This document shows, piece by piece, positions 35,518 to 40,667 of a DNA stretch of 64,000 bases. Where the stretch lies: the sequence record PQ571307, one strand, 5' to 3'. The position numbers and the translations under genes were made by a program. The DNA comes from Shigella phage SF1-1. Under the pieces are notes generated by a model. It had not been told where the DNA came from, ran no database searches, and saw nothing but the letters and a program-made list of their open reading frames with translations. The first letter of the stretch is position 1. Each line of letters begins with the position of its first letter.

Positions 35518-35739
35518 CTACTCCGCAAGAATATTCACTTCGTCAGAGAAAAATACGTAATCACAACCTTCCCAAACATCTTCTTCAAACCACTCCCATC
35601 CCTCAACTTTGGACATTTCTTCTATCGTAACAAAGAATGTTGTCATGTCATCGCTAACAAGATGTGCTTCAACAACAAAAGGAATCTGAACATTCTCAAA
35701 ACCAACATAACCTAATACATCACAAACTCTAATTTTCAT
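35518..35739 (-). CDS. paralog family B member
   Basis: KIR ... GY.G ... EGWEW.EED..EG.DYVFF shared with 40211 and 40419 ORFs. Confidence 0.45.
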   Translation of the reverse strand: MKIRVCDVLGYVGFENVQIPFVVEAHLVSDDMTTFFVTIEEMSKVEGWEWFEEDVWEGCDYVFFSDEVNILAE

Positions 35740-35740
35740 A

Positions 35741-35941
35741 TTATGCTCCTTTGTAGATTATGTTGGTGCGTTCACACTCTGCTACCAACAAGCGATTAGC
35801 AATGTTATCCATAGGAACATCAATCTCTACACTCCAGGCATTGATACACACTTCTTCAATCTTTGCTCCCAACATTTGTGCGATCAGGGCAACAGCCCCA
35901 GCATATTCAAGTTTAATCTCAATTACCATTTTGCACCTCAA
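35741..35941 (-). CDS. hypothetical protein
   Basis: ORF in co-oriented array. Confidence 0.4.
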   Translation of the reverse strand: MRCKMVIEIKLEYAGAVALIAQMLGAKIEEVCINAWSVEIDVPMDNIANRLLVAECERTNIIYKGA

Positions 35942-35943
35942 GG

Positions 35944-36144
35944 TTATTTATCTTGCTTGTATCTTACAAGGCGATCACACTCCAGGTCAAGAAATTTCTC
36001 CGCATTTCGTTCATGTTTGAGCACAATACACTGTTCTTTCCAGTCTGTAGCTCTTTGCTGCGCTGCTCCTGGGTCAAAATCCCAAAGCCATGCCGCGAAA
36101 AGAACAACCATAACAATTACCAAGAAACTAAACACTATTGGCAT
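35944..36144 (-). CDS. small membrane protein
   Basis: Internal ATG after AGGAGGA; hydrophobic N-terminal helix. Confidence 0.35.
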   Translation of the reverse strand: MPIVFSFLVIVMVVLFAAWLWDFDPGAAQQRATDWKEQCIVLKHERNAEKFLDLECDRLVRYKQDK

Positions 36145-36449
36145 TGCACATCCTCCTGTGTAGCATGATCTTTTACCCATTTTATACGGGCAGCATTCAA
36201 ATGCAATAGCCCGTTTCTTTGTGCAAAATCATATTTAAACCAGTCTCCGTCATCAAACGGGTATTCTTCAGACAACCCTGCTTCTCGAAATTGCATTTGC
36301 ATTTCATAATTTAGATCATCGTAACCACCAGTCCAAAGGTAGAGGCAACTACATAATCCTTTATCGTGCCAGAAAGGATTATTATCTGGAGCACCAGCTA
36401 ACAGCCAGTTATGATATGCTTGATAAAATTCTTTAAGTTCTTCTGACAT
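36135..36449 (-). CDS. paralog family A member
   Basis: FYQAYHNWLLAGAP ... GLC ... YPFD ... LNAARIKWVKD. Confidence 0.5.
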   Translation of the reverse strand: MSEELKEFYQAYHNWLLAGAPDNNPFWHDKGLCSCLYLWTGGYDDLNYEMQMQFREAGLSEEYPFDDGDWFKYDFAQRNGLLHLNAARIKWVKDHATQEDVQCQ

Positions 36450-36626
36450 TTAACCTCCTGTGTACAGTGTTGAAAGATACGCAGCAAAAGCATTCTCCGC
36501 TGTTTTCACCTCCTCTTCAAGATCTTCACGCTCTGCTGGCGTTAATGCATTCCGCACAGCAGCGTCTGCTTCTCGGATTTTTCTTACTAAACGTGAAACA
36601 TCTTTCAGTTGTTGAAAAGTAGCCAT
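36450..36626 (-). CDS. hypothetical small protein
   Basis: 58-aa ORF with AGGAGA RBS; not in the ORF track. Confidence 0.35.
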   Translation of the reverse strand: MATFQQLKDVSRLVRKIREADAAVRNALTPAEREDLEEEVKTAENAFAAYLSTLYTGG

Positions 36627-36641
36627 AATCTTTCTCCTGTT

Positions 36642-36926
36642 TTAGTGAGTATCACGCCATTCGGCAATCTCTTCGGCTAAACGATCACAAGAATCGAAAG
36701 CCACTTTACCTTTAGTCTGATTTTCATGTCGTACTTCCTTCAATGCGAGTAATGCATTCACCAGATTATCAACACCTTGATCATCCAGCGCAATAACATC
36801 AAAGTTAAACCCTGTATCAGTTGGGACTTTACGTTTTATGGTGTAATAGTCTCCTTCATGACGTTCAACATCCGCGTATGGGTAACTGCTGTTTGGATCA
36901 TGTTTTACGCGAATAGATGTTTTCAT
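36642..36926 (-). CDS. hypothetical protein
   Basis: ORF in co-oriented array. Confidence 0.45.
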   Translation of the reverse strand: MKTSIRVKHDPNSSYPYADVERHEGDYYTIKRKVPTDTGFNFDVIALDDQGVDNLVNALLALKEVRHENQTKGKVAFDSCDRLAEEIAEWRDTH

Positions 36927-38412: not shown

Positions 38413-38850
38413 TTATAGCAGATCTAATGCTTTCAACTCTTCTTTCAATGATTCAGGCAGGTCACATTCAACGTCAATCAGAGATAACAAGTGACCAACA
38501 ATGCCTTCCAGATGTTGATACTCACTATAACTTATAAATTCAGAATTGTAAACAGAAACATCCTTAGTTTCTTTCACAACTTCCCCCGCAGACACGCACA
38601 TAAAAAAGTTACGCTCTCCGCGAGCTAACAATATCTCCCAACTTCTGAACGGATACTGTCCAGCTTCAATAATATCCCCGCTGTCCAATAAAGTCAATGA
38701 GCAAACAGACCCTGATTCACTAACATCTTCAACGCGGAAACAAGACCCTTCAATCAAAGCTGCCATTTTGAAATTTTCATCCGAGATCACAGAGAAAGCT
38801 TCACAGGCAGCTTTACTTTTGAAACAGTAAACAGCATTAACTTTAAACAT
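38413..38850 (-). CDS. hypothetical protein
   Basis: ORF in co-oriented array. Confidence 0.5.
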   Translation of the reverse strand: MFKVNAVYCFKSKAACEAFSVISDENFKMAALIEGSCFRVEDVSESGSVCSLTLLDSGDIIEAGQYPFRSWEILLARGERNFFMCVSAGEVVKETKDVSVYNSEFISYSEYQHLEGIVGHLLSLIDVECDLPESLKEELKALDLL

Positions 38851-38862
38851 AACATTCCCCTT

Positions 38863-39384
38863 TTAAACAAAAGATACGCCGATGGTAGCAACAACCAAAC
38901 GTTTATAAACTTCAACCTCTTCTGTAGGATTAGCCATTTTATGCTCTGCTGCTTCTTTCAAAGCTTCTTCATAACTTTCAAATCCAGAAATACAGGTGTC
39001 ATCAGTCATTACAACATACCACTCTTCTTTTGTTGTATCAACAGGTTCTTCTGTGTGAGCTTTAAACCACGAAGCACGAACACCACAGTCAACAAAATAA
39101 TCTATATGGGCAGAATTGATTATGTAACGATCCCCATCACTAGCAGTGATAATACCGTCTCTCCCTATCACAACAATTGACAAGATATTACCATTTGCAT
39201 CAGTGCTCAACACCTCGAAAAAATTCTCTCCAATGATAGCAGCAATACTGTTATCAAAGGTAGAATATAATCGCATATAATCTTCATCCTGGAAACGGTA
39301 GACATGACCTTCTTTAAACATGATGTGCTCCTTCTTGTTCAAGAGTAAAAGGAATGATTTCACCATAGCTGTATTGCATGGCAT
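38863..39384 (-). CDS. hypothetical protein
   Basis: ORF in co-oriented array; start may be internal (M7 or M22). Confidence 0.45.
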   Translation of the reverse strand: MPCNTAMVKSFLLLLNKKEHIMFKEGHVYRFQDEDYMRLYSTFDNSIAAIIGENFFEVLSTDANGNILSIVVIGRDGIITASDGDRYIINSAHIDYFVDCGVRASWFKAHTEEPVDTTKEEWYVVMTDDTCISGFESYEEALKEAAEHKMANPTEEVEVYKRLVVATIGVSFV

Positions 39385-39508
39385 TCACTTCTGCTTCTGC
39401 ACGTTGTGCTAGTTCTAATGTTGCACAGATCTTGTAAGGAACAGTGCTGCATTGGCTCCAACCTGGGGTGTTCTTAGTCACTAAATATACAGTAGTTCCT
39501 TTATTCAT
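39314..39508 (-). CDS. hypothetical protein
   Basis: ORF in co-oriented array. Confidence 0.35.
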   Translation of the reverse strand: MNKGTTVYLVTKNTPGWSQCSTVPYKICATLELAQRAEAEVNAMQYSYGEIIPFTLEQEGAHHV

Positions 39509-39962
39509 AACTTTCTCCTCCTAGTTCATCATACCATTTCAAAGCGTCTTTTGGAAGCATACCAAAATCTTCTTTCAGTTCTTTTTCAATCTCTTCTTGC
39601 ATTTCCATCAGCATTTTCAGTTGACGGACTTTTTTGTGCATAGCCACATTCCTTTCATTAAGGTTTGTCACTACATTATTTGCACGACTCGGTGGAAATG
39701 ACAAAGGTTTCACGGGAAGATAATCTTCGATATTATCTAGTGCGTTACGAAAATTATGATCCAAGAAACGCACATCCACACGATTGTAATCGGCAGCTAC
39801 AACAGTGAACACTTTAAACGGCACATTGGATAAAGTATGTTGCACACAGACAGTACCCATATTACCTTCAATTTTACTATTAACTTCCAGCAAACCTGTA
39901 TGAGCACTAACATAATCGTGGACACATTGCACATAAGCTGCCAGTATAGTGAATTGTCTCAT
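39501..39962 (-). CDS. hypothetical protein
   Basis: ORF in co-oriented array. Confidence 0.5.
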   Translation of the reverse strand: MRQFTILAAYVQCVHDYVSAHTGLLEVNSKIEGNMGTVCVQHTLSNVPFKVFTVVAADYNRVDVRFLDHNFRNALDNIEDYLPVKPLSFPPSRANNVVTNLNERNVAMHKKVRQLKMLMEMQEEIEKELKEDFGMLPKDALKWYDELGGESYE

Positions 39963-40207
39963 TTTCTACCTCCCCATAATGCTAACATTTTATTGAAAAT
40001 GGAAACGCGTCGTGCGCGAGATGCCATATCATAATTCATTCTTTCTGTCTCTGCAAGAAATTGATCTACTGTAATCAACGCTTCTGTCTTCTCTTTCAGA
40101 GTTTGCATATTCATCCATTCACATTCAGAGTACCAATTATCGAAATACAAACTATCAAGAAGATCCATTGCTGCTTCGTTCTGTTGTGGTGTGATCATTG
40201 CACACAA
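39959..40207 (-). CDS. hypothetical protein
   Basis: ORF in co-oriented array. Confidence 0.4.
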   Translation of the reverse strand: MCAMITPQQNEAAMDLLDSLYFDNWYSECEWMNMQTLKEKTEALITVDQFLAETERMNYDMASRARRVSIFNKMLALWGGRK

Positions 40208-40210
40208 CCT

Positions 40211-40432
40211 TTAATAGACAATTTCATATTCATCACGAAGGAAAACATACTCACCTCCTTCAACAGTATCCCCTTCTTCCCATTTCCAACCTTGCACATG
40301 GCTCATCGTTGTGAACTGCACGTAGGCATTTCTGCCATAACCAATATTTGCATCCAGTGTAACAGGGAAATCTACATGAAGCAATCCTAAGTAACCACAA
40401 TTATGCTCAATACGAATTTTACAGATCATCAC
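40211..40432 (-). CDS. paralog family B member
   Basis: KIRIEHNCGYLG ... AYVQFTTMSHVQGWKWEEGDTVEGGEYVF. Confidence 0.45.
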   Translation of the reverse strand: MMICKIRIEHNCGYLGLLHVDFPVTLDANIGYGRNAYVQFTTMSHVQGWKWEEGDTVEGGEYVFLRDEYEIVY

Positions 40433-40667
40433 TCGTCTCCTCTACAATCGTATACTCATGAGAGAAGAAACTATAATCATGACCTTCTTTCGTATCTTCC
40501 TCATCCCACCACCAGCCTTCCACTTGTATCATAGTTGAAAATCGCACATAGGCAAGCCCCTTGTCACCCAGTTTAGCATCAAGGATGAGTGGGAATGTTG
40601 CACCTTCTAATCCCTCATACCCACACGGATCTTCTGTACGAATTTTCATGCGTTTCATGCTATGCAT
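40419..40667 (-). CDS. paralog family B member
   Basis: KIRTEDPCGYEG ... AYVRFSTMIQVEGWWWDEEDTKEGHDYSFF; tandem with 40211. Confidence 0.45.
   Translation of the reverse strand: MHSMKRMKIRTEDPCGYEGLEGATFPLILDAKLGDKGLAYVRFSTMIQVEGWWWDEEDTKEGHDYSFFSHEYTIVEETSDDL

Follow-up and report, generated by a model that had tools for sequence, protein, structure and literature searches.

How did two small overlapping genes of one family come to lie side by side in the genome of Shigella phage SF1-1, and what might their products do? The stretch analysed here, a 64,000-nucleotide part of sequence record PQ571307 that we call the window, carries three short open reading frames (ORFs), A, B and C (Table 1), with B and C in tandem. 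Phage genomes of the phAPEC8-like group, Escherichia myoviruses with about 150 kb of DNA in the genus Phapecoctavirus (Stephanstirmvirinae), are 96–98% identical to the region, and Mt1B1_P17 matches it best, at 97.8%. A preliminary description, made from the letters of the sequence, had read the three ORFs as paralogs and the tandem pair as the product of a recent duplication. We found all three ORFs where they had been placed, each on the minus strand, and consider it probable, taking our account as a whole, that they are true paralogs with an SH3-like fold, that B and C form an old, coupled pair at a recombination-prone site, and, more tentatively, that the products would act as binders of other proteins.

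Pairwise alignment, the check that had been proposed for the paralogy, gave significant BLASTP scores for every pair: B and C share 51% amino acid identity (E=6e-24), A and C 45% (E=1e-18), and A and B 37% (E=2e-14). A hidden Markov model (HMM) built from the three sequences and run with filters off against all six-frame ORFs of the window recovered exactly these three, at E≤2e-41, and no fourth copy, the next match having E=1.5. The claim of a three-copy family with one tandem pair is therefore upheld. The motifs that had been quoted for it are for the most part right. K-I-R and E-G-x-x-Y-x-F are present in A, B and C, and E-Y-x-I-V is found, as described, in the tandem pair only, but C-G-Y-x-G and A-Y-V-x-F-x-T-M are confined to B and C, with A having LGYVG and FFVTIEEM, and B carries W-E-E-G-D where E-E-D had been given. 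All three proteins match phrog_15322 over its full length (profile positions 1–73 of 73; E=2.6e-44 for A, 5.2e-22 for B and 8.7e-28 for C) and, more weakly, phrog_13367. Both are labelled as of unknown function, and the PHROG entry records neither the paralogy, nor the tandem pair, nor the longer fused relatives considered below.

The tandem copies were also said to overlap, and they do so by a length that depends on where B begins. B is listed as 40211–40432 with a GTG start at 40432, and an alternative ATG lies at 40429; the ATG is most likely the true start, and is the one chosen by the annotators of phages EF1-1 and ZCKP1 and in protein cluster P0001. The overlap with C is then 11 nucleotides (nt), as it is in the EF1-1 and ZCKP1 annotations, and would be 14 nt with the GTG. 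Within the junction, the ATG of B occupies 40429–40427 and the TAA of C 40421–40419, the Shine-Dalgarno-like GAGGAGA of B (40442–40436) sits within the 3′ end of C, and the last seven residues of C, EETSDDL, are encoded by the DNA in which B has its ribosome-binding region and its start. The 11-nt overlap suggests that translation of C and B would be coupled. In front of A, AGGAG lies 7 nt 5′ of the ATG. C might instead start at an internal ATG, at 40658 or 40649, and the ZCKP1 annotation of the C ortholog begins at MKIR; the N terminus MH(S/N)MKRMKIR is common to C and to D of phAPEC8, a single-copy family gene at the same site. The C terminus of B, EYEIVY, is likewise that of D.

Adjacent, overlapping and on one strand, B and C look as if a single gene had recently been duplicated in tandem, in situ, within this phage lineage, as the preliminary description had concluded. 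The junction contributes to this appearance: GAGGAGA precedes both genes, and C, which is without the ancestral TAT-TAA ending kept in D and B, has lost its stop exactly at the start of the second unit and reads through the ribosome-binding site of B to EETSDDL. Because of this arrangement, the junction geometry as read from the DNA fits an original duplication of a unit consisting of ribosome-binding site and gene. The divergence of the copies, however, speaks against a recent date. In a codon-register alignment their DNA is 59% identical, a repeat finder detected no DNA repeat linking them, and Nei-Gojobori estimates give a proportion of synonymous differences (pS) of 0.74, a synonymous distance (dS) of about 3.5, which is saturated, a nonsynonymous distance (dN) of 0.40 and a dN/dS of 0.11. 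ZCKP1 and EF1-1 already carry the pair in this diverged form, and C and B compared with their own orthologs there show dS of 0.02–0.12 with dN/dS below 1.

Moreover, each copy is nearer to a gene of another phage than to its neighbour. The nearest relatives of B are E, the single family gene of the Justusliebigvirus phage outra (60% amino acid and 73% nt identity), and cluster P0013; those of C are D and D2, the one gene of the family that phAPEC8 and PsgM04F have at the B/C site (57–59% amino acid and 71% nt identity). In a neighbour-joining tree from a 72-column alignment, B groups with E at a bootstrap of 60% and C with D at 51%, so the support from the tree itself is weak. The DNA flanking the pair is 94–99% identical between the window and phAPEC8, which has a single, different allele at the site. 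On the grounds of the low nucleotide identity, the saturated synonymous sites, the missing DNA repeat and the closer relatives elsewhere, B and C are an old gene pair, and we regard a recent duplication as all but excluded.

The distribution of the family was determined by tblastn against 50,697 phage records, of which 111–112 contain it. B at ≥95% identity (identical or 98.6%) is confined to EF1-1 and to two records of ZCKP1, and these hold A, B and C, three copies as in the window. A D-type gene, 60–80% identical to C, is found in 49 records, and an A-type gene at ≥95% identity in 63. Most of the listed Phapecoctavirus records have family genes in two places, one D-type and one A-type; the Justusliebigvirus phages have one copy (E). 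The Phapecoctavirus phages anhysbys, nieznany and WPEC have A only, and in anhysbys the tandem site is empty of family genes, the homolog of phAPEC8_0020 being followed directly by that of phAPEC8_0022. The variation in copy number among related phages that had been suggested as a check is thus found at the B/C site, which holds zero, one or two family genes. The window, EF1-1 and ZCKP1 are without phAPEC8_0020, which is ancestral because its homolog makes up the N-terminal part of outra_172; C in the window uses the upstream region that in phAPEC8 serves this unrelated gene.

Chimeric states occur as well. Two metagenome protein clusters, P0003 and P0004, are 76-residue C/B chimeras, each standing alone at the syntenic site between a 124-amino acid and a 79-amino acid gene. 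In the DNA of each, C-type sequence gives way to B-type sequence at a short string common to the two types, ATGA in P0003 and TGGGA in P0004. The fusions go back to two independent deletions, both in frame and in register, at microhomologies of 4–5 nt. With none, one, two or chimeric genes among its relatives, the B/C site is prone to recombination. Expansion and contraction of gene copies is known in viruses as a 'genomic accordion', the example being K3L of poxviruses. As in that system, recombination at the present locus adds and removes tandem copies of a small accessory gene, but the copies here are old and diverged and not fresh, identical amplifications.

Recombination might also have brought the two genes together in the first place, a Justusliebigvirus-type, B-like allele having been set beside a Phapecoctavirus-type, C-like allele by exchange between the two phage lineages; B and C would in that case be two alleles of a single locus. 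The nearest relatives of B (E and P0013) and of C (D and D2) point this way, and the region is a mosaic, in which phAPEC8_0020 has been lost and phAPEC8_0018 and phAPEC8_0019 have been fused. Against this, the bootstraps are weak and the differences in identity small over 72 columns, the sequence that precedes E in outra (the end of outra_172) is unlike the C/B junction, and 73% nt identity to E is far from what a recent donor would give. We therefore consider an assembly across lineages possible but unlikely. The origin that we favour is an ancient duplication followed by differential loss, with the pair then moving as a cassette.

Structure prediction, also suggested beforehand as a check, gave a confident model of a small barrel. 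For C, AlphaFold2 run on a 21-sequence alignment returned a predicted local distance difference test (pLDDT) score of 93.4 and a predicted template modelling (pTM) score of 0.81, with all five models above 90. The predicted strands comprise residues 5–11, 27–33, 39–41, 65–67 and 73–77, and the model is confidently that of a small five-stranded β-barrel, probably SH3-like. With known barrels of this kind (SH3, KOW, Tudor, PsaE), A, B and C would have only the fold in common: no Pfam family, SH3, KOW and Tudor models included, matched any of them at E≤1, and a profile search of the sequences of solved structures in the PDB found no related chain. Proteins of about 70 residues from T4-like and other virulent phages, among them A0A0K1LND4 of Citrobacter phage Merlin, Q76ZG7 of RB49, Ec_Makalu_003 and SRT8, have predicted structures that superpose over the whole protein with template modelling (TM) scores of 0.6–0.7; these uncharacterised proteins have only 13–29% sequence identity, and no function is named for them either. 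The conserved residues sit in loops (in C numbering, G-Y-x-G at 16–19, F-P at 25–26, G-W at 51–52 and D..E-G at 58–62), and the paralogs vary chiefly in the loop between strands 1 and 2 and in the hairpin of strands 2 and 3.

That the ORFs are short, have no assigned function and are known from sequence alone could be taken to mean that they are non-functional remnants or artefacts of gene calling. We find this hardly credible. The family is conserved in more than 110 phage records, the dN/dS between paralog lineages is 0.1–0.3, the Shine-Dalgarno sequences are properly spaced, a confident fold emerges from the 21-sequence alignment, and both of the deletions that fused C to B preserved frame and register. 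A, B and C are instead protein-coding genes under purifying selection.

All three proteins are acidic, with isoelectric points (pI) of 4.05, 4.73 and 4.48 and net charges of about −14, −6 and −10 for A, B and C, respectively; D of phAPEC8 is mildly acidic (pI 5.46). So strongly negative a charge speaks against binding to nucleic acids. It could be suited to DNA mimicry, in which the proteins would be acidic decoys for restriction enzymes or nucleoid proteins, as are Ocr or ArdA, and a charge of −6 to −14 in about 8–9.6 kDa, together with small size, a place in an accessory gene block and a varying copy number, is in keeping with such a role. However, the proteins have no sequence or fold likeness to any solved DNA mimic, a compact barrel of 70 residues is small for the role unless it is oligomeric, and the only mild acidity of D does not match it. 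DNA mimicry accordingly seems to us improbable.

Small SH3-like barrels are typically binding modules, and the acidity of the proteins, their predicted barrel, the clustering of conserved residues in loops and the variation of the paralogs in those parts lead us to favour a role as binders. We suggest, only tentatively, that the three products would be made early and act stoichiometrically, by binding or blocking proteins of the host (or perhaps of the phage) during its takeover or in counter-defence. The paralogs would probably differ in target or specificity, because it is mainly in loops that they vary, and adjacent copies may act together as a pair, for instance as a heterodimer, given that natural two-domain fusions exist. 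In all contexts examined, members of the family lie among small early or accessory genes. An anti-TIR factor, Atd1, which is a MazG-like pyrophosphatase, has been reported in Phapecoctavirus and Justusliebigvirus (PMC11724313; bioRxiv 10.1101/2022.06.09.495361), and no other anti-defence factor was found in reports on these genera. The phage genera are all that it has in common with A, B and C, from which it differs in size, sequence and fold, and a relation to it was rejected; Klebsiella phage phi1_175008 does have a MazG-like pyrophosphohydrolase gene, about 200 nt 5′ of one of its family genes.

Several points weigh against the account that we prefer. Function, time of expression and partner are deduced from circumstantial features only, namely small size, acidity, the surrounding block of small unknown genes and the variable copy number. 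A function is named nowhere in the family libraries, the defence and anti-defence resources or the literature: PADLOC gave no match for A, B or C at E≤0.1, NCBIfam gave none, and literature searches on the family found no paper. The branch supports that would separate an in situ duplication from an assembly across lineages are the weak ones quoted above. The P0003 and P0004 fusions, finally, are known from metagenome assemblies; collapse during assembly is an unlikely source of them, since they come from several samples and the DNA of B and C is only 59% identical.

Larger protein collections extend the family beyond these phages. A word-indexed search of 5.8 billion proteins yielded 11 clusters, an exhaustive HMM search of 1.84 billion representatives (at 50% identity) listed 53, and another indexed search, run with a wider profile, found 56 clusters, none of them named and most of them from metagenome contigs, several of these 140–170 kb long. 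Four of the 53, the very long matches P0012, P0030, P0040 and P0059, were judged to be noise: P0040 and P0059 are repetitive and match many unrelated Pfam models, P0030 has no Pfam match and its alignment is limited to seven short repeated segments, and for P0012 no aligned stretch was reported. The family is phage-restricted, about 70 residues in length, acidic and without a Pfam entry, and we propose (K/R)-(I/V)-x-L-L-N-D-G-G-Y-x-G-L-x-x-V-x-F-P-V as its motif.

Many relatives are longer, at 110–250 residues, with the barrel at the N terminus followed by a conserved helical C-terminal tail of consensus ...RK..LL.LV.DYG.AINDGCYESECG...EEEKRLLKEIIKMIEEGV. On this tail DUF7438 scored 22.2 bits, which is below its cut-off of 25. 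Two barrels are present per chain in P0021, P0039 and P0042. Phage phi1_175008 (Stephanstirmvirinae) has two long members with one gene between them, and in L012, a T4-like metagenomic contig of 168 kb, about eight family genes follow one another at 3003–6074, two of them two-domain, for a total of about 10 domains. The L012 array has a Dam methyltransferase and a Tad2-like gene within a few kb of it. In the window, the ORF at 39959–40207, just 3′ of B, was considered as a tail homolog split off by gene fission and was rejected, as a tail HMM found nothing there; its best match across the window (E=0.5) is in an unrelated ORF. Also no more than tentative is the generalization that these sequences represent an undescribed, phage-wide family of acidic SH3-like barrels, repeatedly arrayed, fused and reshuffled in register, which would be diversifying inhibitors of host proteins for counter-defence or takeover of the host, with neighbouring members acting as heterodimers.

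One existing label bears on A. In the GenBank record of EF1-1 the A ortholog (locus L002, 10555–10776) is called 'protein ea8.5'. The only likeness of A to Ea8.5 of phage lambda is that of a small phage accessory protein: BLASTP gave no alignment at E≤100, the hhalign probability was 0.13%, and the identity was rejected. Because no likeness to lambda Ea8.5 is detectable, the label is unsupported and should not be propagated.

Table 1. Positions in the window of the three family members, their translation signals and the phrog_2510-like genes
Feature	Position	Strand	Remarks
Copy A	35518-35739	minus	73 amino acids; ortholog of phAPEC8_0033
Copy B	40211-40429	minus	72 amino acids; downstream partner in the tandem pair
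Copy C	40419-40667	minus	82 amino acids; upstream partner in the tandem pair
C/B junction	40419-40442	minus	Holds the Shine-Dalgarno-like signal of B, the ATG of B and the TAA of C; read from the sequence
Shine-Dalgarno-like GAGGAGA of C	40673-40679	minus	5 nt before the ATG of C
phrog_2510-like copy	27985-28371	minus	
phrog_2510-like copy	29263-29664	minus	
phrog_2510-like copy	32146-32490	minus	
phrog_2510-like copy	32905-33228	minus	
phrog_2510-like copy	36138-36449	minus	
phrog_2510-like copy	40730-41113	minus	

A, B and C lie in a block of about 30 kb of tightly packed small minus-strand genes, nearly all of which are 'hypothetical' in related records; the larger ORFs of the block fall mostly into PHROGs of unknown function. 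A scan for promoters and terminators was uninformative, with 36 promoter-like sites against 30 expected. The window contains a second and larger paralog family, phrog_2510-like and about 105–130 residues long, with six minus-strand copies within 13 kb (27985–41113) that have the C-terminal motif ...R(L/I/V)QWV.DRI. Copies stand beside C, at 40727–41101, and near A, at 36135–36449, and in phi1_175008 one lies between two SH3-like genes. A two-gene module of phrog_2510-like and SH3-like genes is a weak lead, and the adjacency may be due to chance because there are six copies within 13 kb; beside the distant family members in L012 and L013, phrog_2510 is absent.

Close to C, the minus-strand gene at 40727–41101 has arisen by fusion of phAPEC8_0018 with phAPEC8_0019, two paralogs in tandem. 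It matches 0018 (98.7%) over the upstream DNA and about the first 11 codons, and 0019 (93.7%) from there on; the two alignments share 17 nt, and the join falls within these. This gene is a second case in the region of a tandem pair that has collapsed. At 41102–42726 lie about 1.6 kb without an ORF of more than 64 amino acids, downstream of a terminator-like hairpin (42711–42693, minus strand). In phAPEC8, EF1-1, ZCKP1, outra and the metagenomic relatives L011 and L014 the corresponding gap bears no annotation, and the segment itself gave no Rfam or tRNA match. It holds direct repeats of 17–18 nt, a palindrome (42024–42061) and a local flip of the GC skew, and includes an AT-rich segment (42200–42499) with a GC content of 0.30; it may be a regulatory or replication-origin region.

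A 1.3-kb contig in ENA encodes a further C-related protein, P0010 (141 amino acids), in which the N-terminal 53 residues of C (to ...VEGW) are joined to a different C-terminal part that resembles, by eye, the end of the phrog_3710-type gene at 38863–39384. It is either a deletion variant lacking about 1.2 kb or an assembly chimera. The latter gene and the ORF at 38413–38850 also look alike by eye, but the similarity was not significant (E=0.89) and the resemblance was set aside. Elsewhere in the window of this otherwise virulent myovirus, a 225-residue ORF at 30034–30711 (minus strand) matches serine-recombinase/DNA-invertase PHROGs (phrog_125, E=1.1e-32); PsgM04F, a related phage, also has a gene annotated as a 'DNA invertase'. 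The small-gene block has at its far end an HNH/endonuclease-like ORF (phrog_681) that adjoins an ATPase (phrog_2376), at 51159–52166 and 52236–53375 (minus strand).

Uncharacterised families of small genes are common in large virulent phages, and one with three copies is fairly ordinary. The practical value of the present findings is modest, in that they correct the reading of a recent duplication and remove a wrong 'Ea8.5' label. Beyond this, they define a domain family that has a confident predicted fold and no Pfam entry, and they provide testable candidates in phAPEC8-like phages, which are used in phage therapy research. What the analysis adds is evidence for a recombination hot spot at the B/C site and for a domain that has formed tandem arrays time and again. 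Should the suggested function hold, the family would join the other small phage proteins aimed at host factors, and the site, with zero, one, two and chimeric states in near-identical genomes, would be a handy natural case of how such genes come, go and recombine.

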